Part shown: positions 23,887 to 59,987 of the stretch, piece by piece | How the letters are laid out: the number at the start of each line of letters is the position of its first letter | Numbering within the stretch: position 1 is the first letter of the stretch | Assembly: GCF_024700885.2 (NCBI RefSeq) | Contig: NZ_CP117016.1 | DNA from: Escherichia coli | GTDB lineage: Bacteria; Pseudomonadota; Gammaproteobacteria; Enterobacterales; Enterobacteriaceae | Length of the DNA: 64,000 nucleotides | Reading direction: 5' to 3' (one strand) | The notes under the pieces: model-generated | The model's input: only the letters and a program-made list of their open reading frames with translations | What the model was told of the DNA's origin: nothing | Database searches by the model: none | Made by a program: the position numbers and the translations under genes

Positions 23887-26121
23887 CTAACTCCCGTGCA
23901 ACCGACGCGCGTCGATAACGTCTGGCACCTGATTGAGTTTACCCAGCACGCGGCCCAGCACTTGCAGATTGTAAATCTCAATGGTCATGTCGATGGTCGC
24001 CAGTTGCTGTTTGGTGTCGCTACGGCTGGCAACGCCAAGTACGTTCACCTTCTCGTTGGCGAGAATGGTCGTGATATCACGTAACAACCCACTACGATCA
24101 TTAGCCACCACGCGGACCACCAGCGAATATCCGGCGGAGTAGCTCTCGCCCCATACCGCGTCAACAATGCGTTCTGGCGCATGGGAGCGCAGTTCCGCCA
24201 GTTGCTCACAGTCTGCACGATGCACTGAAATACCGCGTCCCTGAGTAATGAAACCAACAATTTCATCACCAGGAATCGGCTGACAGCAGCGCGCGATGTG
24301 GTGCATCAGGTTACCGACCCCTTCAACCACCACACGACCGTTATCTTTACTGCGGTTTTGCGGCGTATAGCTTTTTTGCTGAAGTTGCTTCAGCGCGGCG
24401 GCATCCTGCTCTTCGGCACTCGGCTTATTAAATTGCGATTGCAGGAAGTTCACCATCTGATTGAGACGGATATCCCCGCCACCAATTGCCGCCAGCAACT
24501 CGTCGACATCATTGAAGTTGTAACGCGGCAGCAGATGTTTTTCTGCTTCTTTCAGGCTGATCCCCAGATGTTCCAGCTCGTCGTCAAGGATTTGCCGCCC
24601 AGCCAGAATGTTTTTGTCACGGTCCTGTTTACGGAACCAGGCGTGAATTTTCGAACGCCCACGGCTGGTTGTGACGTAACCGAGGTTTGGGTTTAACCAG
24701 TCACGGCTGGGGTTCGGCTGTTTCTGGGTAATAATTTCAATCTGGTCTCCCATCTGCAGCTGGTAGGTGAACGGCACAATGCGCCCGCCTATTTTTGCCC
24801 CGATGCAGCGGTGCCCGACATCACTGTGGATGTGGTAAGCGAAGTCCAGCGGCGTTGATCCCGCAGGCAAATCAACGACGTCACCTTTCGGCGTAAAGAC
24901 GTACACCCGGTCGTCAAAGACCTGGCTGCGTACTTCGTCGAGCATTTCGCCGGAATCAGCCATCTCTTCCTGCCACGCAATCAGTTTACGCAGCCAGGCA
25001 ATTCGGTCTTCATGTCCCGAACGTGCGCCGCCAGCTGCCGCGCCCTCTTTATATTTCCAGTGCGCAGCAACACCCAACTCTGCATCTTCATGCATCTGTT
25101 TGGTGCGGATTTGGATCTCTACGGTTTTGCCACCTGGTCCCAGAACCACGGTATGAATAGACTGATAACCGTTTGGTTTCGGGTTAGCGACGTAATCGTC
25201 AAACTCATCCGGCAGGTGGCGATAGTGAGTGTGCACTATCCCCAGTGCGGCATAACAATCCTGTAAACGCTCGGCGACAATACGTACCGCACGCACATCA
25301 AACAGCTCATCGAAGGCGAGGTTCTTTTTCTGCATTTTGCGCCAGATGCTGTAGATGTGTTTCGGACGACCATACACTTCAGCTTTAACGCCTTCAGCTT
25401 TCATCTCAGCGCGCAGATGGCCGACAAACTCTTCGATATAGTGTTCGCGGTCGAGACGGCGTTCATGCAGCAGTTTTGCGATGCGTTTGTATTCGGTCGG
25501 GTGGAGATAACGGAAGCAGTAATCTTCCAGCTCCCATTTCAGTTGTCCAATCCCAAGACGGTTCGCCAACGGCGCGTAGATATTGGTGCACTCTTTTGCC
25601 GCCAGTACGCGTTCATCTTCCGGCGCGTCTTTTACTTCGCGCAGATGAGCAATACGCTCTGCCAGTTTGATGACCACGCAGCGAAAATCATCGACCATCG
25701 CCAATAACATCCGGCGAACGTTATCGACCTGTTCGGAGGAAACAGAATCGGTATGCGTCGCTTTCAGCTGGCGGATCGCCGCCATATCACGCACGCCGTG
25801 AATAAGGTTAACGACCGACTTACCGACGCACTCACGCAGCACATCTTCGCTGACTACGTTGGCATCCGCCAGAGGGAACAGCAGCGCCGCCCGCAGCGTG
25901 TCAATGTCCATACTTAATGTCGAGAGGATCTCCACCATCTCAACACCACGCCACAATAACAGACTGGCATCCGGATGCCCCTGCGTCTGTTGCAGACAAT
26001 ACGCCCAGGTTTCGGCTAAGCACTCACACGACTTCTGGCTGGTAATACCCAGACTTGCGATCCATTTTTCCGGATCAAATTCACCAGCCTTATTGATATG
26101 TGCACTTCTTACCGCAACCAT
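23887..26121 (-). CDS. relA: GTP pyrophosphokinase, (p)ppGpp synthetase I
   Basis: 744-aa ORF, MVAVRSAHINKAGEFDPEKWIASLGITSQKSCE... Confidence 0.97.
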   Translation of the reverse strand: MVAVRSAHINKAGEFDPEKWIASLGITSQKSCECLAETWAYCLQQTQGHPDASLLLWRGVEMVEILSTLSMDIDTLRAALLFPLADANVVSEDVLRECVGKSVVNLIHGVRDMAAIRQLKATHTDSVSSEQVDNVRRMLLAMVDDFRCVVIKLAERIAHLREVKDAPEDERVLAAKECTNIYAPLANRLGIGQLKWELEDYCFRYLHPTEYKRIAKLLHERRLDREHYIEEFVGHLRAEMKAEGVKAEVYGRPKHIYSIWRKMQKKNLAFDELFDVRAVRIVAERLQDCYAALGIVHTHYRHLPDEFDDYVANPKPNGYQSIHTVVLGPGGKTVEIQIRTKQMHEDAELGVAAHWKYKEGAAAGGARSGHEDRIAWLRKLIAWQEEMADSGEMLDEVRSQVFDDRVYVFTPKGDVVDLPAGSTPLDFAYHIHSDVGHRCIGAKIGGRIVPFTYQLQMGDQIEIITQKQPNPSRDWLNPNLGYVTTSRGRSKIHAWFRKQDRDKNILAGRQILDDELEHLGISLKEAEKHLLPRYNFNDVDELLAAIGGGDIRLNQMVNFLQSQFNKPSAEEQDAAALKQLQQKSYTPQNRSKDNGRVVVEGVGNLMHHIARCCQPIPGDEIVGFITQGRGISVHRADCEQLAELRSHAPERIVDAVWGESYSAGYSLVVRVVANDRSGLLRDITTILANEKVNVLGVASRSDTKQQLATIDMTIEIYNLQVLGRVLGKLNQVPDVIDARRLHGS

Positions 26122-26168
26122 CGTCCTCTCCTTTAGGGACCAGACCTGCCGAAATCGGCAAATCGCAA

Positions 26169-27470
26169 CTATTTAACGCGCGAGAAAAGTACCATCGATT
26201 CCAGATGTCCCGTGTGTGGGAACATATCCAGCATCGCCAGTCGCGCAATGGTATATCCTGCTTTTAATAACGCTTCGCTATCCCGAGCCAGCGTTGCAGG
26301 GTTACAGGATACATAAACTATACGAATAGGTTCCAGTTTTATAATTTGCTGCATAACACCTGCGGCACCTGCTCGCGCCGGGTCCAGCAACACTTTATCG
26401 AAGCCGTTTTTCGCCCACGGCTGCTTTGTGACATCTTCTTCAAGATTTTCGTGATAAAACGTCACATTGTGTAAGCCATTAAGACGCGCATTCTGCTGGC
26501 CTTTTTCCACCAGCGCCGGAACACCTTCTACACCCACCACACTGGCAGCTTGTGTCGCTAATGGCAGTGTAAAGTTGCCCATACCGCAGAACAAATCCAG
26601 TACGCGATCTTCAGGTTGCACATCCAGCCATTCCAACGCACGCGCTACCATTTTTTGGTTCACACCCGCATTGACCTGAATAAAATCGCGCGGGCTAAAA
26701 GTTAAGCGCAACCCGTTTGAGTCATACCAGGGCATCTCACCAGCGACGGTTTCGAGTATCTCACTATCGGGGGCGAGATACAGATCCAGGCCTTCAGAAT
26801 GCGAAAAGCGTTCCAGTTTTTCGCGATCAGCCGAACTTAGCGGTGCGGTATGGCGCAAAATCATCAGCGTGCCGCTGGTTGCCTGTACCAGTTCAACATG
26901 ACCAAGATGGCGCATAGCTTGTAAGCTGTCCAGGCATGCCCTGACTTTGGGCAGCAATGCTTCAAGTTGGGGCACTAAAATGGGGCATTGTTTAACGTCG
27001 ACAATGTCACTGGAGCCCGCTTTGCGAAACCCCATCTGAAGTTGCTGTGTTTTCGGTAAGTAGTTCAGACTTAAACGCGCGCGACGGCGATAGCCCCAGG
27101 GAACATCGGCGATCACTTCAGAGACTTCGTGTTTCATTAATCGGGCGAGTGCCGCACTTTTGCTTCGCTGCTGTAAATCCACGCTGGCGTGTTGTTGCTG
27201 ACAGCCGCCGCATACGCCAAAATGAGGGCAGCGTGGCGTTTCGCGTTCCGGGCTATCGCTTAACCGGCGCACGACTTTAGCGCGGGCGTATTGTTTTTTA
27301 TCTTCAGTAACAGTAACTTCCGCGTTTTCCTGTGGCAATAATCCAGGAATAAATAACGCTTTGCCGTTATGTCGTGCCACGCCCTGACCAAAAGAGTCGA
27401 GGTCGTTGACTGAAACAGTTATGATCTGACGCGTCGTCGTGCGTCGTTTTGCAGAGTAGAATTGCGCCAT
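26169..27470 (-). CDS. rlmD: 23S rRNA (uracil1939-C5)-methyltransferase
   Basis: 433-aa [40 protein letters not shown]...; TRAM plus SAM-MTase with Fe-S Cys. Confidence 0.92.
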
Positions 27471-27526
27471 TGGCGAGACTTTCTCAATTTAACAGTGTGA
27501 CCTTAATTGTCCCATAACGGAACTCC

Positions 27527-30283
27527 ATGACCAACTACAGCCTGCGCGCACGCATGATGATTCTGATCCTGGCACCGACCGTCCTTATTGGTTTATTGCT
27601 GAGTATCTTTTTCGTTGTGCATCGCTATAACGACTTGCAGCGTCAACTGGAAGATGCCGGAGCCAGCATTATTGAGCCGCTTGCAGTTTCTACTGAATAT
27701 GGCATGAGCCTGCAAAATCGCGAATCTATCGGTCAGTTAATAAGCGTACTGCATCGTCGCCATTCCGATATTGTTCGCGCGATTTCGGTTTATGATGAAA
27801 ATAATCGACTCTTTGTCACCTCCAATTTTCATCTTGATCCCTCATCAATGCAGCTCGGCAGCAACGTGCCGTTTCCTCGCCAGCTCACTGTCACCCGTGA
27901 CGGCGATATTATGATCCTCCGCACGCCGATTATTTCTGAGAGTTACTCCCCCGACGAATCGCCCAGTAGCGATGCCAAAAATAGTCAAAATATGCTGGGA
28001 TATATTGCGCTGGAGCTGGATCTTAAATCGGTTCGCTTGCAGCAATATAAAGAGATCTTTATTTCCAGCGTGATGATGCTGTTTTGTATCGGTATTGCGC
28101 TTATTTTTGGCTGGCGCTTAATGCGCGATGTAACCGGTCCGATTCGCAATATGGTGAATACCGTCGACCGCATCCGTCGCGGGCAACTCGACAGCCGGGT
28201 GGAAGGATTTATGCTCGGCGAGCTGGATATGCTGAAAAACGGTATCAACTCGATGGCAATGTCGCTGGCTGCTTATCACGAAGAGATGCAGCACAATATC
28301 GACCAGGCGACGTCCGATCTGCGTGAAACGCTGGAGCAGATGGAAATTCAGAACGTTGAGTTGGATCTGGCGAAAAAGCGCGCCCAGGAAGCGGCGCGTA
28401 TTAAATCCGAGTTTCTTGCAAATATGTCACACGAGCTGCGTACACCACTGAATGGTGTTATTGGCTTTACCCGCCTGACGCTGAAAACAGAATTAACACC
28501 AACACAGCGCGATCACCTGAATACGATTGAACGTTCGGCAAATAATTTGCTGGCAATTATTAATGATGTTCTCGACTTCTCGAAACTGGAAGCAGGTAAG
28601 CTGATTCTGGAAAGTATTCCATTCCCACTACGCAGCACGCTGGATGAAGTCGTTACCCTGCTGGCACATTCTTCTCACGATAAAGGGTTGGAACTGACGC
28701 TCAATATTAAGAGCGACGTGCCCGATAACGTGATCGGCGACCCACTGCGATTACAGCAAATCATCACTAACCTGGTGGGGAATGCAATTAAATTCACCGA
28801 GAATGGCAACATTGATATTCTGGTAGAAAAACGTGCGCTGAGTAATACTAAAGTGCAGATTGAAGTGCAGATTCGGGATACCGGCATTGGTATTCCTGAA
28901 CGCGATCAATCGCGCTTATTCCAGGCCTTCCGACAGGCTGATGCCAGTATTTCCCGCCGTCATGGTGGCACCGGGCTGGGGCTGGTGATTACACAAAAAC
29001 TGGTTAATGAAATGGGCGGCGATATTTCGTTCCATAGCCAGCCGAATCGCGGTTCAACTTTCTGGTTCCACATTAATCTCGATCTGAACCCGAACATTAT
29101 TATCGAAGGGCCATCCACCCAGTGCCTAGCCGGCAAGCGCCTGGCCTATGTCGAACCAAACTCCGCAGCAGCGCAATGCACGCTGGATATTTTAAGTGAA
29201 ACGCCGCTGGAAGTGGTTTATAGCCCAACGTTCTCCGCGCTGCCTCCCGCGCATTACGACATGATGTTGTTAGGCATCGCGGTGACCTTCCGCGAGCCGT
29301 TAACAATGCAACATGAGCGATTAGCGAAAGCGGTATCGATGACCGATTTCCTGATGCTGGCACTTCCTTGCCATGCACAAGTCAATGCTGAAAAACTTAA
29401 GCAAGATGGTATCGGCGCGTGTCTGCTGAAACCATTAACACCTACGCGCCTGTTACCTGCCCTGACGGAATTTTGTCATCACAAACAAAACACGCTTTTG
29501 CCTGTAACCGATGAAAGTAAGCTGGCAATGACAGTCATGGCGGTTGATGACAACCCCGCTAACCTGAAACTTATCGGCGCATTGCTGGAAGATATGGTGC
29601 AACATGTGGAACTTTGCGATAGCGGGCATCAGGCGGTTGAACGGGCGAAACAGATGCCGTTCGATTTGATCTTAATGGATATTCAAATGCCGGACATGGA
29701 CGGCATTCGGGCCTGCGAACTCATCCACCAGCTCCCCCATCAGCAACAAACGCCAGTTATCGCGGTAACGGCGCATGCAATGGCCGGGCAAAAAGAGAAG
29801 CTGCTTGGCGCAGGGATGAGCGATTATCTGGCGAAACCGATTGAAGAAGAGCGATTGCATAATTTGTTGTTGCGCTACAAGCCTGGCAGCGGTATTTCCT
29901 CTCGCGTCGTGACGCCCGAAGTCAACGAAATTGTGGTGAACCCGAATGCGACCCTCGACTGGCAACTGGCACTACGCCAGGCAGCAGGAAAAACCGATTT
30001 AGCGCGCGATATGCTGCAAATGTTACTCGATTTCCTGCCTGAAGTTCGCAACAAAGTTGAGGAACAGCTGGTTGGAGAAAACCCGGAAGGCCTGGTTGAT
30101 TTGATTCATAAACTGCATGGCAGTTGCGGCTATAGCGGTGTGCCGCGTATGAAGAATCTCTGCCAACTGATCGAACAACAGCTACGTAGCGGTACTAAAG
30201 AAGAAGATTTGGAGCCGGAGCTGCTGGAACTGTTGGACGAGATGGATAATGTAGCGCGCGAAGCCAGCAAAATTCTCGGGTAA
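27527..30283 (+). CDS. barA: hybrid sensor histidine kinase BarA (partner of UvrY)
   Basis: 918-aa [40 protein letters not shown]...; HisKA H-box (SHELRTPLN), receiver and Hpt domains. Confidence 0.95.
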
Positions 30284-30351
30284 CGGACGTCTTGTCGAGT
30301 AGCAATCGGCTTTTTATGACGCTGGTTTCAGATTGGTGACAAAGTGCCTGT

Positions 30352-30392
30352 GTTTATTCCGGATGCGGCGTTAACGCCTTATCCGGCCTACA
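30352..30392. repeat. REP element downstream of barA
   Basis: CCGGATGCGGCGTTAACGCCTTATCCGGCCTAC palindrome. Confidence 0.65.
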
Positions 30393-30476
30393 AAACCAAT
30401 TAAATTCAATGAATTAAAAAGTATGTTGGCCTGATACGTAGCGCAACAGGCAATTTTGCGTTTGGCATCAGTCTCA

Positions 30477-30510
30477 AACCGGCTCCTGACAGAGCCGGTT
30501 TTGGTTTTCT
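30477..30510. terminator. intrinsic terminator between barA and gudD (convergent)
   Basis: 9-bp stem AACCGGCTC/GAGCCGGTT with 6-nt loop, followed on the plus strand by TTGGTTTTCT; lies 6 nt from the gudD stop. Confidence 0.6.
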
Positions 30511-30513
30511 GTC

Positions 30514-31854
30514 TTAACGCACCATGCACGGACGCTTGTTATCGAACGTCCAGCCAGGAATCAGATACTGCATTCCCATTGCATCGTCACGCGCGCCAAG
30601 CCCGTGTTTCTGATACAGCTCGTGGGCTTTCATCACCTGATCCATATCGATTTCTACGCCCAATCCTGGTTTTTGCGGCACCTGTACCAGCCCGCCTTTG
30701 ATCTCAAACGGTTCTTTGGTCAGACGCTGATTGCCTTCCTGCCAGATCCAGTGCGTATCAATAGCAGTAATTTTACCCGGTGCAGCAGCGGCTACATGGG
30801 TAAACATCGCCAGGGAAATATCGAAGTGGTTGTTAGAGTGTGAACCCCAGGTCAGGCCAAATTCATGGCACATTTGCGCCACACGTACCGAACCTTGCAT
30901 CGTCCAGAAATGCGGATCCGCCAGCGGGATATCAACGGATTGTAACGAGAGCGTATGGCCCATCTGCCGCCAGTCGGTGGCGATCATATTGGTTGCAGTC
31001 GGCAGACCTGTCGCGCGGCGGAACTCTGCCATCACTTCACGCCCGGAAAAACCTTGCTCCGCACCACACGGATCTTCTGCATAAGCCAGCGAACCTTTCA
31101 GGTATTTACCGATTTTAATCGCTTCGTTCAGCGACCAGGCACCGTTAGGATCGAGGGTAATACGCGCCTGCGGGAAGCGTTGCGCCAGTGCCACAATAGA
31201 TTCTGCTTCTTCTTCCCCGGCCAGTACACCGCCCTTCAGTTTGAAATCGTTGAAGCCATATTTTTCATATGCCGCTTCCGCCAGGCGCACCACCGCATCC
31301 GGCGTCATCGCTTCTTCGTGACGCAGGCGATACCAGTCACATGAGTCATCCGGCTGGCTTTGATACGGCAGCGGTGTGGCTTTGCGATTACCGACGAAGA
31401 ACAGATAACCGAGCATTTCGACTTCGCTACGCTGTTGACCATCGCCCAGCAGCGATGCCACGTTAACCCCCAGATGCTGCCCCAGCAGATCCAGCATTGC
31501 CGCTTCTATCCCGGTAACCACATGAATAGTGGTCCGCAGGTCAAATGTCTGCAAACCGCGCCCGCCGGCATCACGATCGGCAAATGTATTACGCACCAGC
31601 GTCAGAACGTTTTTGTATTCACCCAGCGTTTTACCCACCACTAGCGGAATCGCATCTTCCAGCGTTTTACGGATTTTCTCGCCGCCGGGAATTTCCCCTA
31701 CGCCGGTGTGACCAGAATTATCTTTGATAATCACAATATTACGCGTGAAGAACGGTGCGTGTGCACCACTCAGATTCATCAGCATACTGTCATGGCCCGC
31801 CACCGGGATGACCTGCATTTCAGTAACAACAGGCGTCGTAAATTGAGAACTCAT
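30514..31854 (-). CDS. gudD: glucarate dehydratase
   Basis: ORF trimmed to ATG at 31854 (446 aa, [23 protein letters not shown]...); enolase superfamily. Confidence 0.93.
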
Positions 31855-31874
31855 ATTTATGTCCTTTTTCAAAA

Positions 31875-33215
31875 TCAATGACGGCCGAAAACGGGACGTT
31901 TACGGTCAAAGGTCCAGCCGGGGATCAGGTACTGCATCGGGCCCGCGTCGTTACGCGCACCGCCAGGCAGACGTTTATAGGCCTCATGCGCCTTTTGTAC
32001 CTGCTCCCAGTCCAGTTCCACGCCCAGACCGGGCGCATCAGGAACTGCAATTTTTCCGTTTTTAATCTCCAGCGGATTTTGGGTCAGGCGACAATCTCCC
32101 TCCTGCCAAATCCAGTGGGTATCGATAGCGGTAGGATTACCCGGTGCCGCCGCACCCACATGGGTAAACATCGCCAGAGAGATATCAAAGTGGTTGTTGG
32201 AATGACAGCCCCAGGTCAGCCCCCAGTCGTCGCAAAGCTGCGCCACGCGGACTGCACCGGAAAGCGTCCAGAAGTGCGGATCGGCAAGTGGAATATCTAC
32301 TGCATTGAGCATTACCGCATGACCCATTTCACGCCAGTTGGTGGCGATCATGTTAGTCGCGACGGGCAAGCCGGTCGCCCGCCGAAACTCCGCCATCACT
32401 TCACGACCGGAGAAACCCTGTTCTGCGCCGCATGGATCTTCGGCATAGGTAAGAACATCATTCAGCCCTTTGCACAAAGAAATGGCTTCATCAAGCAGCC
32501 ATGCACCGTTGGGATCAACGGTAATCCGCGCATCCGGGAAGCGTTTCTTCAATGCACGAACAGTGTCGATTTCTTGCTCGCCAGGTAACACTCCGCCCTT
32601 AAGTTTGAAATCTTTAAAGCCATAACGATCCTGTGAAGCTTCCGCCAGACGCACAACGGCTTCGCTGTTCATCGCTTTCTGATGGCGCAACTGATACCAC
32701 TCATGGTTGCCCGGCGTATTTTCCAGATAAGGAAGATCGGTTTTGGTCCGATCACCGATATAAAACAGATAACCGAGGACGGTAATAGCCTCGCGTTGCT
32801 TGCCTGGCCCCAACAGTTCGCAGACCGGAACATTCAGCGCCTTACCTAGCAGGTCAAGCAAGGCGGCTTCCAGCGCCGCCACGGCATTAACGCGCAATTC
32901 AAAAGTCCAGGCACCTTTGCCGAAGGTATCAAAATCGGCTGCCTGATTACCTTTATGCACCTGCTGAACCACTTTATTCAGGCGCGCAACTTCCTGGCCC
33001 AACACCATCGGAATAGCATCGACAAGCGTCTGATAAATCACCTCTCCGCCTGGCGCTTCACCAATGCCGGTATGCCCGGCGTTATCGGTGAGTACCACAA
33101 TATTGCGAGTGAAATATGCGTTATGCGCCCCACCAATATTAAGCAACATGCTATCGTGCCCGGCGACCGGAATGACTTTCATATCAGTAATAACAGGACT
33201 GGATTGTGTCGTCAT
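31875..33215 (-). CDS. gudX: glucarate dehydratase-related protein
   Basis: 446-aa [34 protein letters not shown]...; paralogue of gudD. Confidence 0.93.
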
Positions 33216-33216
33216 C

Positions 33217-34569
33217 TTATTGCCCCGCGACAGGTTTCAGCTCGATACGCTTGATATCGCCCACCAGCACCAGGTAGCTCAGTACCGCGATTAAGGCATG
33301 AACACCAACATAAATCAGCGCCCCATTAAACGAGCCAGTCGTGCCAACGATATAACCAATTGCGATTGGCGTGACGATGCCAGAAATGTTACCGAACATG
33401 TTGAACAGGCCACCGGAAAGACCGCTGATCTCTTTTGGCGCGGTATCTGCCATTACTGCCCAACCCAGCGCCCCGATGCCCTTACCGAAGAAGGCCAGCG
33501 CCATAAAGCCGATGATCATCCACTCAACGTTGACGTAGTTGCAGAACACCATCACCATCGACAGCAACATGCCCATTACGATCGGTGTTTTACGCGCAAT
33601 GTTCAGCGATCCCGTGCGGCGCATCAGCCAGTCGGAAATAATCCCACCCAGCACACCGCCGATAAAACCGCAAACCGCCGGAACGGAAGCCACAAAGCCC
33701 GCTTTCAGAATCGACATCCCGCGTGCCTGCACCAGATAAACCGGGAACCAGGTAATAAAGAAGTAAGTCAGGGCGTTGATACAGTACTGACCGATATAAA
33801 CGCCGATCATCATCCGTGACCCTAGCAGCTGTTTGATCTGCCCCCACTTCACGCTGAACGGTACTTTAACTTTGGTGTTTTGCTGATCCATATTGATCAG
33901 CGCGCCACCCGCGGCGATGTACTCCAGCTCTTTCTGATTTACACCCGGATGTTGATTTGGCTCGTGGATGACTTTCAGCCAGAAAAAGCTGATGACAATG
34001 CCCAGACCGCCCATAAAGAAGAAGACGTGTGACCAGCCCACTTCATGAGTCAGCCAGCCCATAATCGGCGCGAAGATCACCGTTGCGAAGTATTGAGCGG
34101 AGTTAAAAATAGACACCGCCGTTCCCCTTTCCTGCGCCGGAAACCAGGCCGCAACAATGCGACTGTTGCCGGGGAAAGATGGCGCTTCAGCAAGCCCGAC
34201 CAGGAAGCGCAGAGTAAACAGGGCAACGATAATGCCGAATCCACTAAAAATATCGACGAAGCCTTGCAGCAAGGTAAACATCGACCAGATAAAGATCGAC
34301 CAGAAGTAGACGCGTTTTGAACCAAAACGATCCAGCAACCAACCACCAGGGATCTGTCCGATAACATAAGCCCATGAGAAAGCAGAGAACACATAGCCCA
34401 TTCCCACGGGATCAAGGCCGATATCTTTGGCCATTTCCGAACCGGCAATAGAAAGCGTAGCGCGGTCGCCGTAGTTGAAGGATGTGACGATAAACAACAT
34501 CACCACTATCCAGTAACGAGCATTTGTGCGTTTTTCCACACTGCTCGCAGCCTGACTTAAAGAACTCAT
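33217..34569 (-). CDS. gudP: glucarate/galactarate MFS transporter
   Basis: 450-aa [42 protein letters not shown]... Confidence 0.93.
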
Positions 34570-35003
34570 TGTTGCACTCCTGAAAATTCGCGTTAGCCAC
34601 GCTCACTCTGGACTGCGACATCGCCAGGAAATCAGAGGTGACGTAGGGTGTTTTTTGCCGTTTTTATAGGTCGTTCGCCGAATACGGCGCGTGTTTATAT
34701 CTGGCAATAGCAGTATAAAAAGCGCGCCATAGCGGCTCACCGTGCAACAACACAACATTAATGCGTTCAATGAGGCCCGATTTTGGCATTAGCCCTGGAC
34801 GGTGGAATCCACTTCACGGAAATGAAAACAAGAACAAGAAAGGAAGGGTTAAAACGAAGAAATAAAGAAGAGTATGAAATGGATCGCTTGACTCCAGGCA
34901 AACGCCAGTAAAAATCCGCGCTATGAAGCAGTTTTTACTGGCATTTGCCTGAAAAGATTCGATTCAGCACCGCTAAAACGGCATTTACCGCTCGCTGAAC
35001 GTA

Positions 35004-35453
35004 TCAGGACAACAGCGTGCCCCAATGTTCGACCCACGGATTTGATTCCGTTTCCGGTTCCGGGTTCTCACTGGCGTCAATCAACAGCATTTCTCCCACC
35101 CGCTGAGCGCTCTGTTCCTGCAACAAGGCATCGAACTGTTTGCCGCCATTGCAGAAATTCACATAACTACTGTCGCCGAGCGCAATCACGCCATAACGCA
35201 GATTCGGCTGGAAGCCCAGGGTATCTTTAATTCCCTGAAAGAGCGGCACAATGCTATCAGGAAGGTCGCCCTGCCCGGTCGTGGACGTAACCACCAGAAC
35301 ATACTTATTCTGATAGGGCAGCCAGTCGCTTAATTCAGGATCTTCAAATACCGTTGCTTTGTGGCCCTGCGCGGTCAGAATTGCTTCCGCTTCTTCCGCC
35401 ACTAACAGCGAATTTCCGTACATAGTGCCCACAAAAATACCAATTTCCGCCAT
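35004..35453 (-). CDS. yqcA: flavodoxin-like protein
   Basis: 149-aa [39 protein letters not shown]... Confidence 0.9.
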
Positions 35454-35470
35454 ACCGTTTTCTCCCTGGA

Positions 35471-36253
35471 TTAGGAACTTATCTCTCCATCCTGACCCGA
35501 TGGCGCACTGAACTCAACCCTTTCATTTTCAGGAAGCAGACCCCGCCAGCCAAATTGTGATAACGCCTGCATCCAGGTGCCGTCCAGGCCCGCGTGAATA
35601 GTCAACGGCTCGCCAGTAAAAGGATGCGTCAATGACAACTGACTGGCATGCAGCATTAACCGCTGAAGGCCAAAATGTTCAGCACCGCTGCGATTCTGGC
35701 GTAAATCACCATGTTTGCTGTCGCCAATAATCGGATGGCGCAAATGGGCAAGATGGCGACGGAGCTGGTGCTTGCGTCCGGTTTTCGGCTCCAGTTCCAC
35801 CAGGCCGTAGCGCGTGGTCGGGTAACGTCCGGTCGCTACCGGCATTTCTACGGTCGCCAGACCGCGATAATGCGTCACTGCTGGCTGTGGGCCTTTATCT
35901 TCGCGAGCAAATTTATCAGCGATTTTGTCCAGTTCTTCCACCAGTGGATAATCCAGAACTGCTTCTTCCATCAACCAGCCGCGCACAATCGCATGGTAAC
36001 GTTTCTGGATTTGGTGCTGTTCAAACTGTTGTGCCAGCAGCCGTCCGGCCTCGCTGGATAATCCCATCAACAACACACCAGAAGTTGGTCGGTCCAGACG
36101 ATGAGCAGTAAACACATGCTGGCCTATCTGGTCACGCACGGTTTGCATGACCACTACTTTCTCGTCGCGATCCAGCCAGCTGCGGTGAACCAGCCAGCCG
36201 GAGGGTTTATTTACCGCAACCAGCCATTCATCCTGATAGAGTATTTCCAGCAT
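35471..36253 (-). CDS. truC: tRNA pseudouridine(65) synthase
   Basis: 260-aa [28 protein letters not shown]...; RluA-family HRLDRPTSG motif. Confidence 0.92.
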
Positions 36254-36582
36254 TAGCTCGCATCATCCGCAAAAAGAGCATCCAGTTTTTCCAGCTCAGC
36301 CAGAATAAGCGCGCGTTGCGGGTGGTCCGTCGCCAGCGCCATTTCATAATAGGGAGCAACGGCAAAAGCACCCGGTAACGGCTGGTTGTTTTCTAACAAA
36401 TCGTGCATTCGCGGGATCAGCACCCACTGCAACCACTCCAGTGGTTCCATGGTGTCCATAAAGAACGGTTGGGTACTATTAAATTGATGCGGCTGGGGTT
36501 CATCGTTTCGCCAGTGCTGATGTTCACGCAGTAACGCTTCAAGCGCCTGCAACTGGAAACGAACGCGGTCATGAGTGGTCAT
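36253..36582 (-). CDS. yqcC: DUF446-family protein
   Basis: 109-aa ORF, MTTHDRVRFQLQALEALLREHQHW...; stop overlaps truC start. Confidence 0.85.
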   Translation of the reverse strand: MTTHDRVRFQLQALEALLREHQHWRNDEPQPHQFNSTQPFFMDTMEPLEWLQWVLIPRMHDLLENNQPLPGAFAVAPYYEMALATDHPQRALILAELEKLDALFADDAS

Positions 36583-36624
36583 AAAGCAACCTCAATAAGA
36601 AAAACTGCCGCGAAGGATAGCAGG

Positions 36625-36993
36625 AATAAAAAAAGGGAGCACTGTATTCACAGTGCTCCCGGTTCGTTTCGCAGCATTCCAGCTACTTTTGTTGCTCCCT
36701 GCTCATCCTTGACAACTTTTCCTCTGGCCTTGCGGCCAATCGTTCATCCTGAACTATTGCTTCCTGCTCACACCACCCCGATGTGATACTTCATCCTGAA
36801 GTGTCCCTGGCCTTCCTGACCCACCGAATCATCCTGACCGGTTCTCATTCTCCATCCTGGAGGTGTCCTTTAACGCGTCCTGCGTCATCCTCTTCGCTTC
36901 ATCCAGAAGCCTTTCCCTGAAACACCATCCTGGTGTGTCCTTCAGAAGTGTCATCATCCTGATGTTCACTTCGTTGTCTGACTCCCTGTCGAC
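36625..36993 (-). ncRNA. csrB: CsrB small RNA (CsrA-sequestering)
   Basis: Minus-strand transcript of about 369 nt from GUCGACAGGGAGUCAGACAACGAAGUGAACAUC (5' end at 36993) to hairpin GGGAGCACUGUGAAUACAGUGCUCCC plus U-run (36627-36660). At least 8 exact CATCCT (AGGAUG in the RNA) plus many more CAGGA/AGGA motifs on the plus strand. Confidence 0.95.
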
Positions 36994-37166
36994 GAAGATA
37001 GAATCGTCTTTTTCGCGAAGTCTTACAAGGCGCTTACAGACAATGCCTTAAGGAAAATTTCATATGAAAGTTAAGAATTGACAAGCAATATATTGATTTT
37101 AAATGAAAATAACGATTCTTATCTTTTTAAGTATTCGCTTATTTCCTGGCGATCTCCTACAGAGTC

Positions 37167-37184
37167 TGTAAGAGATCTCTCACA
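37167..37184. promoter_or_regulatory. UvrY-box inverted repeat upstream of csrB
   Basis: TGTAAGAGATCTCTCACA, perfect 18-bp palindrome about 175-190 bp upstream of the csrB 5' end. Confidence 0.75.
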
Positions 37185-37203
37185 ACCAGATGGGGTATTT
37201 GGA

Positions 37204-37749
37204 TTACAGAAGAGGCTTAAGTTGATTAAGGAATTCCGCAAGATTTGAGGCTAAATGCGTCCGTTTACGTGTTCCCAGCGTCTCTTTGCACACTTCACCG
37301 GAGAGATTACACACCGAGATCACCTCTAACTCTTCTTCCAGCGTCGCGATAAATAGCGTGGGCGGCAATTTTAGCCTTTTCTGAGTCACCAGATGACCAA
37401 TCAGATTTTCCTGCACCCGACGGAAGTCGTCTTCACTCCAGGTTTGCAGCAATGTCAGTTTGATATCGCCAAACTGCGCGTGCATATCCCCGGCAAACTG
37501 AGTCGTATAAAAGGTATGAATTGTGGGTTGTATCACAAGATCAAAAGCGCGTTCAACCGCGTTTACATTTTGTTCCCCGGTAAACGGCTGGGGTTGCCAG
37601 TATACGGCATCTTCGGTGGTTGAAATAATGCACGGTGAAGGAACGCCGTACAGTTCCTCACTCAACGGCCAGCTTTTATGCTCTTCATGCCACGCATCGC
37701 AGTAGCGTGCAGTAAAATCTTTCAGGGCTTGTGCGGTCAAATCGTCCAC
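37204..37749 (-). CDS. syd: SecY-interacting protein Syd
   Basis: 181-aa [38 protein letters not shown]... Confidence 0.92.
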
Positions 37750-37816
37750 TAATTTCTCTCTTCACCTAAACCAGATACACTTGTCGTTTAGTTTATCTGG
37801 TTTATGACGGTGAAAC

Positions 37817-55163: not shown

Positions 55164-55369
55164 ACTTCCTGAGCCGGAACGAAAAGTTTGATCGGAATGC
55201 GTGTTCTGGTGAACTTTTGGCTTACGGTTGTGATGTTGTGTTGTTGTGTTTGCAATTGGTCTGCGATTCAGACCATGGTAGCAAAGCTACCTTTTTTCAC
55301 TTCCTGTACATTTACCCTGTCTGTCCATAGTGATTAATGTAGCACCGCCTAATTGCGGTGCTTTTTTTT
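55164..55369 (+). ncRNA. gcvB: GcvB small RNA
   Basis: ACTTCCTGAGCCGGAACGAAAAGTTT... with GU-rich TGTGATGTTGTGTTGTTGTGTTTGCAATTGG region, ending in terminator AGCACCGCCTAATTGCGGTGCTTTTTTTT; divergent from gcvA. Confidence 0.93.
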
Positions 55370-59691: not shown

Positions 59692-59768
<77 letters not shown>

Positions 59769-59801
59769 ATTAAAATTTGATGAAGTAAAGCAGTACGGTG
59801 A

Positions 59802-59878
<77 letters not shown>

Positions 59879-59910
59879 ATCAAATTTGATGAAATAAAGC
59901 AGTACGGTGA

Positions 59911-59987
<77 letters not shown>

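Follow-up and report, generated by a model that had tools for sequence, protein, structure and literature searches.

The barA and csrB genes of Escherichia coli: identity, regulatory region and chromosomal neighbourhood

The locus that carries barA and csrB in the 64,000-nucleotide stretch of the E. coli chromosome analysed here (the window) is very probably the canonical BarA/UvrY-CsrB arm of the Csr system of this bacterium, lying in its normal chromosomal place, with a proximity of the two genes that reflects an inherited gene order. This circuit is already known and belongs to the best-studied regulatory circuits of bacteria; the analysis mainly confirms the annotation, with little importance beyond that. 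In this regard, the original prediction, which had spoken of a known circuit and of a proximity merely worth noting, chose an appropriate level of claim. The region from position 27000 to 37800 matches several E. coli strains at 100% identity, and 5412 of 5426 complete genomes contain it unbroken. No result speaks against this identification. The distance between the barA stop codon and the 3′ end of csrB, previously estimated as within 7 kb, amounts to 6341 bp (6.3 kb). The features of the locus are collected in Table 1.

The mechanism of the circuit is drawn from the literature. BarA, a tripartite kinase of the membrane that combines an sCache sensor with a HAMP domain and the phosphorelay His302-Asp718-His861, would sense protonated short-chain carboxylates at the end of exponential growth and phosphorylate UvrY, whose gene lies outside the window. 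Phosphorylated UvrY (UvrY-P) would then bind an 18-bp near-palindrome centred at -182.5 upstream of csrB, and IHF, bound around -100, is thought to bend the DNA in such a way that UvrY-P is brought to the weak csrB promoter. The CsrB RNA produced (369 nt; most of its 22 GGA motifs lie in loops or single-stranded regions) would finally sequester CsrA dimers, an activity established in the literature for the CsrB of K-12.

Table 1. Features of the barA-csrB locus (window coordinates; negative numbers are positions relative to csrB)
Feature	Position	Strand	Basis
relA and rlmD, divergent from barA	23887..27470	-	ORFs, annotation
barA, tripartite hybrid sensor histidine kinase, 918 aa	27527..30283	+	ORF; RefSeq annotation
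gudD-gudX-gudP, glucarate/galactarate catabolism operon	30514..34569	-	RefSeq annotation, mapped
yqcA (flavodoxin), truC (tRNA pseudouridine-65 synthase), yqcC (DUF446)	35004..36582	-	Annotation; yqcC by Pfam DUF446
TGCTATCCT, extended -10-like motif, then GC-rich stretch, in the spacer between csrB terminator and yqcC start	36604..36612	-	Sequence
csrB sRNA gene, 369 nt by K-12 annotation	36625..36993	-	Rfam RF00018
csrB intrinsic terminator	36625..36660	-	Terminator scan; last helix of the Rfam model
TATCTT, best -10-like hexamer, abutting the annotated csrB 5′ end	36994..36999	-	Sequence reading
Two TGTAAG half-site-like motifs, about -45..-40 and -34..-29	37022..37038	-	Sequence
AATCAATATATTG, match to the IHF core consensus WATCAANNNNTTR, -105..-93	37086..37098	-	Regular expression
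TGTAGGAGA, extra UvrY half-site, 5 bp downstream of the inverted repeat	37153..37161	-	Sequence; described in PMC4682653
UvrY-P binding site, 18-bp near-palindrome TGTGAGAGATCTCTTACA on the csrB strand	37167..37184	-	Matches footprinted site (PMC4682653)
syd (SecY-interacting protein), upstream neighbour of csrB	37204..37749	-	Pfam Syd, annotation

Identity of barA and csrB

The product of barA matches the NCBIfam equivalog NF008318 over residues 1-917 (1623.9 bits against a cut-off of 890) and contains all six Pfam domains, in the order sCache_4, HAMP, HisKA, HATPase_c, Response_reg and Hpt. A close-up view of the phosphorelay residues, whose numbers we take to be those of the BarA literature, places His302 (within HELRTPLN), Asp718 and His861 (within HKLHGS) in the expected motifs. 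Equivalog, domains and RefSeq annotation altogether bear out the assignment of this gene to barA, which had been advanced from the sequence.

The identification of csrB had been made to depend on the CsrB covariance model, and the match is strong: Rfam RF00018 aligns over its full length (model positions 1-356 of 356) from 36984 to 36625 on the minus strand, with 382.9 bits against a gathering score of 71 (E = 2.2e-111). The coordinates originally proposed, 36625-36993, equal those of the 369-nt K-12 annotation. Moreover, the csrB strand comprises 8 AGGATG, 9 CAGGA, 14 AGGA and 21-22 GGA motifs (22 in the 369 nt), in agreement with the at least 8 AGGAUG plus CAGGA/AGGA repeats noticed earlier, and AGGATG occurs on average about 0.1 times per 360 nt of the window. 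The opposite strand has no AGGATG, no AGGA and just 2 GGA, so that the GGA enrichment is one-stranded. In the MFE fold of the RNA, 17 of the 22 GGA motifs are predicted to be fully unpaired and 9 to lie in hairpin loops, and the structure line of RF00018 likewise shows AGGA in successive loops. In the terminator, a GC-rich stem of 11 bp (36660-36635), 7 of whose pairs are GC, precedes a T7 tract (TTTTTTT).

Regulatory region upstream of csrB

The 18-mer at 37167-37184, which reads TGTAAGAGATCTCTCACA in its window-strand form, coincides base for base with the UvrY site upstream of E. coli csrB, so that the UvrY box had been correctly recognized; at the identical K-12 sequence, BarA-dependent binding of phosphorylated UvrY was found by ChIP-exo, ChIP-PCR and DNase I footprinting (PMC4682653). 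It is the sole match in the window even when up to 3 mismatches are allowed (0.05 expected by chance). The location and nature of the site were therefore right, but not its description as a perfect palindrome: self-complementarity holds for 16 of the 18 positions and fails where the A at position 4 meets the C at position 15, and the inverted repeat was in fact termed 'nearly perfect' by Zere et al. 2015 (PMC4682653). Its computed centre is -182.5 from csrB, and the phospho-UvrY site upstream of E. coli csrB was reported to be centred at -183/-182 (PMC4682653). Of 35 regions upstream of csrB, 27 carry an identical inverted repeat, and its centre ranges from -180.5 to -185.5 across genera. Such a conservation of both the 16/18 asymmetry and the -182.5 position fits strict geometric constraints on UvrY/IHF-mediated activation. 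A TGTRRGAGA-type motif also occupies the place of the extra half-site in most of the 35 regions. The BarA/SirA-CsrB system of Salmonella has the same TGTGAGAGATCTCTTACA, centred at -182/-181, and a putative IHF site (PMC4682653), and its csrB gene is likewise found between yqcC and syd (PMC1488887).

Closer to the gene, activation of csrB has been reported to require IHF (PMC4682653), and the two TGTAAG-like motifs fall in the promoter-proximal region of UvrY crosslinking, which extends from -56 to +25 by ChIP-exo and where a TGTAAG half-site was mentioned, without an in vitro footprint (PMC4682653). A consensus scan of 36200-37300 gave no strong sigma-70 promoter for csrB, which fits an activator-dependent promoter; a consensus promoter was dropped and only the hexamer TATCTT noted. 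As TATCTT ends at -1 of the annotated start, the true 5′ end of csrB may be located a few nucleotides downstream.

Gene order across species and the weight of proximity

The same genes, with the same 18-bp inverted repeat at the same position, are found in E. coli K-12 (barA, b2786; csrB, b4408), and the K-12 gene order relA-rlmD-barA-gudDXP-yqcA-truC-yqcC-csrB-syd-queF is also that of the window. The yqcA-truC-yqcC genes lie directly downstream of csrB on the same strand, and gudD-gudX-gudP constitute a variable spacer separating barA from the csrB block. Among 34 species with linked loci (33 loci of Enterobacteriaceae-type genera and that of Pantoea stewartii, in a set that contains no Salmonella locus), csrB is found 1669-9455 bp (1.7-9.5 kb) downstream of barA and always on the opposite strand, a spacing that varies because gudDXP and other inserts are present or absent depending on the species. 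Wherever csrB was found, it lies within the order yqcA-truC-yqcC-csrB-syd; relA-rlmD-barA persists as far as Moritella and Alcanivorax, in almost every locus whose upstream DNA is long enough. The first block adjoins the second, with a variable insert between them, in Enterobacteriaceae and in some Erwiniaceae at least. Five loci from Erwiniaceae stop at yqcA or truC, just before csrB would be expected, and were taken as uninformative rather than counted as negatives.

On the other hand, nhmmer, AGGA-density scans and Rfam gave no CsrB within 10 kb of barA in Yersinia, Rahnella, Rouxiella, Edwardsiella and Moritella, and were also negative for CsrB near barA in Ca. Pantoea persica; modest AGGA peaks at two loci are not CsrB. 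The adjacency of barA and csrB is, in summary, a conserved synteny of Enterobacteriaceae and at least one member of the Erwiniaceae that Yersiniaceae and Hafniaceae lack. Kulkarni et al. 2006 (PMC1488887) pointed out that csrB and syd stay linked, and discussed this context without reference to barA. In Y. pseudotuberculosis, BarA/UvrY also acts through CsrB (PMC6153318) and csrB is also next to syd, between YPTB3010 and syd (PMC1488887), but barA is YPTB0750 (PMC6153318), and by these published locus tags both genes are far apart, unlike in E. coli. The Yersinia nurmii locus, for its part, has no CsrB within 10 kb of barA.

The GacS/GacA-RsmY/RsmZ system of Pseudomonas and the VarS/VarA-CsrB/C/D system of Vibrio follow the same logic: a tripartite kinase is paired with a FixJ-type regulator, a palindromic box lies upstream, and sponge RNAs rich in GGA titrate CsrA/RsmA. 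To our knowledge, the sensor gene is not adjacent to the sRNA genes in either of them. The sRNA genes of these bacteria occur at several scattered loci, such as rsmZ next to rpoS/fdxA (PMC1488887 Table 1).

Since the signal travels through a diffusible regulator encoded elsewhere and relatives have the genes unlinked, the closeness of barA and csrB is most likely a family-level synteny without an evident mechanistic role. Moreover, the absence of the adjacency in Yersiniaceae and Hafniaceae indicates that the circuit does not need it. An alternative would be that the linkage of barA and csrB, perhaps together with relA, is kept by selection. Possible benefits are a matched replication dosage, the inheritance of sensor and output together on a single recombined fragment, or a co-translational insertion of BarA into the membrane that tethers the region near the place where UvrY is phosphorylated. 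In this line, the linkage was found in all 34 informative Enterobacteriaceae-type and Pantoea stewartii loci despite the remodelling of a 1.7-9.5 kb spacer, and the circuit has a third gene nearby, relA, two genes away from barA; ppGpp activates csrB (PMC4682653). As it is retained in every Enterobacteriaceae-type locus with enough downstream DNA, despite repeated gain and loss of the intervening genes, a weak selection for linkage could exist. However, selection appears improbable in view of a signal carrier, UvrY, that is diffusible and encoded elsewhere, a second target, csrC, outside the window, the lack of CsrB within 10 kb of barA in Yersinia, Rahnella, Rouxiella and Edwardsiella, and a circuit that works in Y. 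pseudotuberculosis with both genes far apart. A further argument against it is numerical: in a 5-Mb genome, the 15 pairs formed by about six core Csr loci give a probability of a few percent that one pair falls within ~7 kb by chance. Gene order in the core genome of Enterobacteriaceae tends to be stable, so that the mere retention of a linkage is no more than expected.

A shade less probable still is the more specific idea that the linkage (with relA included) is non-neutral, either nearby synthesis and membrane insertion of BarA or a matched replication dosage sharpening the CsrB response. The distance between sensor and target genes would then be a tuned parameter of an orphan two-component system, and linkage shown to be selected would illustrate, on a modest scale, how the position of a gene can tune a signalling pathway. 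A 2023 'spatiotemporal' paper on BarA deals with polar recruitment by HflKC, not with gene position, and a paper on the CsrB of Rahnella offers no map position of use.

Differences from K-12 and the spacer behind csrB

The 621-bp intergenic region between yqcC and syd differs from K-12 at 6 positions, all of them strain-level SNPs. Two are among the 369 positions of csrB, where an A replaces C in the second GGA context and another A replaces G in the terminator stem, and four fall in an AT-rich patch (about -100 to -87) that includes the IHF consensus. That the motif-rich region and the palindrome are a product of chance or degenerate (csrB having decayed in this strain, for instance, or its box having lost function), has a negligible probability and is, as far as sequence can tell, already refuted by a full-length, high-scoring covariance match, a UvrY box, extra half-site and terminator that are identical or intact, a csrB substitution that makes the terminator stem fully Watson-Crick, and four upstream SNPs of which two hit N positions, where the IHF consensus is degenerate, and the other two come just downstream of this consensus, while no support for such a decay was found among the differences from K-12.

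The start codon of yqcC is located 42 nt past the annotated 3′ end of csrB and ~50 nt past the terminator stem, a short gap that had suggested co-transcription. What the comparative data add here is a conserved promoter-like element directly behind the csrB terminator, which in the window reads TGCTATCCT and is a candidate promoter of yqcC-truC-yqcA, outside the BarA-CsrB circuit itself. The presence of a conserved extended -10-like motif and a GC-rich stretch in the spacer makes an independent yqcC promoter more likely than csrB read-through driving yqcC-truC-yqcA, which is less favoured. The motif, TGnTAYNCT, is found in the csrB-yqcC spacer of 30 of the 34 species, against 0.01 expected per 140 nt.

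The barA and csrB genes of the window

The window comes from the E. coli chromosome. The region that holds barA and csrB (window 27000-37800) is 100% identical to E. coli strain MLI114 and several other strains, and is kept in one piece, defined as at least 80% of the stretch held contiguously, at 95-100% identity in 5412 of 5426 complete E. coli genomes. In RefSeq, K-12 and the identical locus share the gene order relA(-) rlmD(-) barA(+) gudD(-) gudX(-) gudP(-) yqcA(-) truC(-) yqcC(-) csrB(-) syd(-) queF(+). The barA call of the original prediction was confirmed by its reading frame, by a complete tripartite architecture (sCache_4, HAMP, HisKA, HATPase_c, receiver and Hpt), with His302, Asp718 and His861 each within the expected motif, and by the BarA equivalog model (1623.9 bits; cut-off 890).

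Features of the barA-csrB region (promoter positions counted from the annotated csrB 5' end, 36993)
Feature	Position	Strand	Remarks
barA	27527-30283	+	ORF, 918 aa
Extended -10-like motif TGCTATCCT, then GC-rich stretch TCGCGGC	36604-36612	-	Between csrB terminator and yqcC start codon at 36582
csrB	36984-36625	-	Rfam RF00018, whole model
Two TGTAAG motifs	near -45 and -34 of csrB		Inside promoter-proximal UvrY crosslinking region; published element (PMC4682653)
IHF-consensus match AATCAATATATTG (candidate)	37086-37098 (-105 to -93)		Between the two UvrY crosslinking regions; published element (PMC4682653)
Extra half-site TGTAGGAGA	37153-37161		5 bp downstream of inverted repeat; published element (PMC4682653)
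UvrY 18-mer TGTGAGAGATCTCTTACA (csrB-strand reading)	37167-37184	-	Exact match to published site

The sRNA gene predicted at 36625-36993 coincides with the 369-nt csrB of the K-12 annotation, and comparison with the CsrB covariance model, named beforehand as a possible refutation, gave 382.9 bits (gathering score 71). The claim of at least eight exact AGGAUG motifs plus repeats was borne out by counts on the csrB strand (8 AGGATG, 9 CAGGA, 14 AGGA and 22 GGA), in comparison with no AGGATG, no AGGA and two GGA on the opposite strand and a window average of ~0.1 AGGATG per 360 nt. In the predicted minimum-free-energy fold, 17 of the 22 GGA would be fully unpaired and nine would lie in hairpin loops, and the 3' end carries a strong intrinsic terminator. 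Behind it, a TGnTAYNCT motif occurs in the csrB-yqcC spacer of 30 of 34 species (0.01 expected per 140 nt), and its copy in the window is probably a promoter of yqcC-truC-yqcA, whose GC-rich 'discriminator' hints at stringent control.

The UvrY box and the csrB promoter region

The 18-mer upstream of csrB, originally described as a perfect palindrome and as the recognised UvrY site, agrees base for base with the phospho-UvrY site that Zere et al. 2015 (PMC4682653) located there in E. coli, using ChIP-exo together with DNase I footprinting, and its computed centre, -182.5, compares with the published -183/-182. It is unique in the window even at up to three mismatches (0.05 expected). The word 'perfect' does not hold, since only 16 of its 18 positions are self-complementary; the published description is 'nearly perfect' (PMC4682653).

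Of 35 upstream regions of csrB compared, taken from ~33 species, 27 have the identical 18-mer and the others a version with one to three changes; its centre lies between -180.5 and -185.5 (-182.5 in 21), and most regions contain a third half-site of the TGTRRGAGA type downstream of it. Both sequence and geometry of the box are thus under purifying selection. The G/A asymmetry behind the 16/18 figure is kept across these regions, and in two species (L023 and L044) the whole box is flipped with its centre unmoved at -182.5, so that the csrB strand reads TGTAAGAGATCTCTCACA; the asymmetry is retained, whereas the direction it faces relative to the promoter varies. The flip also occurs in part in L046 and L029. 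The latter, an uncultured Enterobacteriaceae MAG, bears two tandem full-length csrB copies (L029 15983-17029; Rfam 251 and 256 bits), each with its own box at about -183; with 250 nt of upstream DNA included, the copies share ~520 of 611 aligned positions, and the duplicated unit comprises promoter and gene together.

A simple scan found no consensus sigma-70 promoter for csrB, in keeping with transcription that depends on an activator. Immediately next to the annotated +1 is TATCTT, the hexamer most like a -10 element, and the true 5' end may therefore sit a few nucleotides downstream. Six positions of the 621-bp yqcC-syd intergenic region differ between the window and K-12, two of them in csrB and four in an AT-rich patch around the IHF consensus; outside this cluster the csrB upstream sequence is identical to K-12. 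The four clustered SNPs fall within 13 bp (37080-37092, about -100 to -87), two at N positions, where the consensus is degenerate, and the other two immediately beyond the match on its downstream side.

The barA-csrB interval across species

In barA loci fetched with 10-kb flanks, one genome per species, csrB was located by nhmmer, AGGA-density scan and Rfam, and neighbouring genes by tblastn. In 34 species (33 loci of Enterobacteriaceae-type genera plus Pantoea stewartii), csrB follows barA on its downstream side, invariably in the opposite orientation, at 1669-9455 bp (median ~7.3 kb), a distance that depends on the content between barA and yqcA. The gudDXP genes are carried by E. coli and by most Citrobacter and Enterobacter; E. 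albertii, Pluralibacter gergoviae and strain RIT691 lack them and have only 1.7-2.8 kb between barA and csrB.

This barA-yqcA interval (window 30284-35003; L004, L022, L023, L030 and other loci) is an indel hotspot: Citrobacter sp. R56 also lacks gudDXP, Kluyvera, Shimwellia and Mangrovibacter keep gudD alone, and some Citrobacter and Cedecea carry extra inserts. In P. gergoviae, a ~1 kb insertion (L022 14442-15496), starting with short GTTTATTTC-type repeats, interrupts the otherwise tight csrB-yqcC spacing.

The sole full-flank Enterobacteriaceae locus without csrB (L006) stops just past the yqcC start, and five further Erwiniaceae loci are uninformative on csrB because they end at yqcA or truC. 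A search of the 10-kb flanks of barA found no CsrB in Yersinia nurmii, Rahnella, Rouxiella, Edwardsiella, two Moritella and Ca. Pantoea persica. The DNA downstream of barA contains OmrA/B-family sRNAs in Ca. Pantoea persica (L057 17109-17216 and 18918-18994) and the rncO leader in Edwardsiella (L037 16362-16542), so the neighbours of barA on that side differ there.

Two gene blocks and their junction

The order relA-rlmD-barA, with barA divergent (window 23887-30283), is conserved in nearly all fetched loci (L003-L058) with enough upstream DNA, from E. coli out to Moritella and Alcanivorax, so that the linkage of a stringent-response gene to the gene for the Csr sensor is ancient; csrB is reportedly activated by ppGpp (PMC4682653). 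This block is much older than the barA-csrB adjacency, and the csrB-syd linkage was previously noted by Kulkarni et al. 2006 (PMC1488887). We read the adjacency as the junction of two older blocks; Enterobacteriaceae have it in common with at least one Erwiniaceae member, and it has since been retained, as has most of the core gene order of both families.

The BarA signal is carried by UvrY, which is diffusible and encoded outside the window, and also reaches csrC, encoded elsewhere. In Y. pseudotuberculosis, barA is YPTB0750 (PMC6153318), the csrB gene is flanked by YPTB3010 and syd (PMC1488887), and the BarA/UvrY-CsrB circuit works with the two genes unlinked. We see no mechanism that would require the two genes to be close, and relatives manage with them apart; it is very improbable that weak selection through dosage, co-inheritance or membrane tethering keeps them linked. 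By a posteriori arithmetic, taking about six core loci of the Csr system and hence 15 pairs in a 5-Mb genome, the chance of one pair within 7 kb is a few percent. The original observation, offered as a known circuit whose proximity is simply worth noting, is correct and already known; its sole error is the word 'perfect' for the palindrome.

Other RNA genes of the window are GcvB (55164-55369, +; 198.4 bits), a chromosomal hok/sok-type locus with an Rfam sok antitoxin RNA match (486-643, -; 111.7 bits), presumably agreeing with the hokX/sokX neighbourhood of K-12, and a tandem array of three tRNA-Met (CAT) genes spaced ~110 bp apart (59692-59987, +), which we take to be the metZWV initiator-tRNA cluster.
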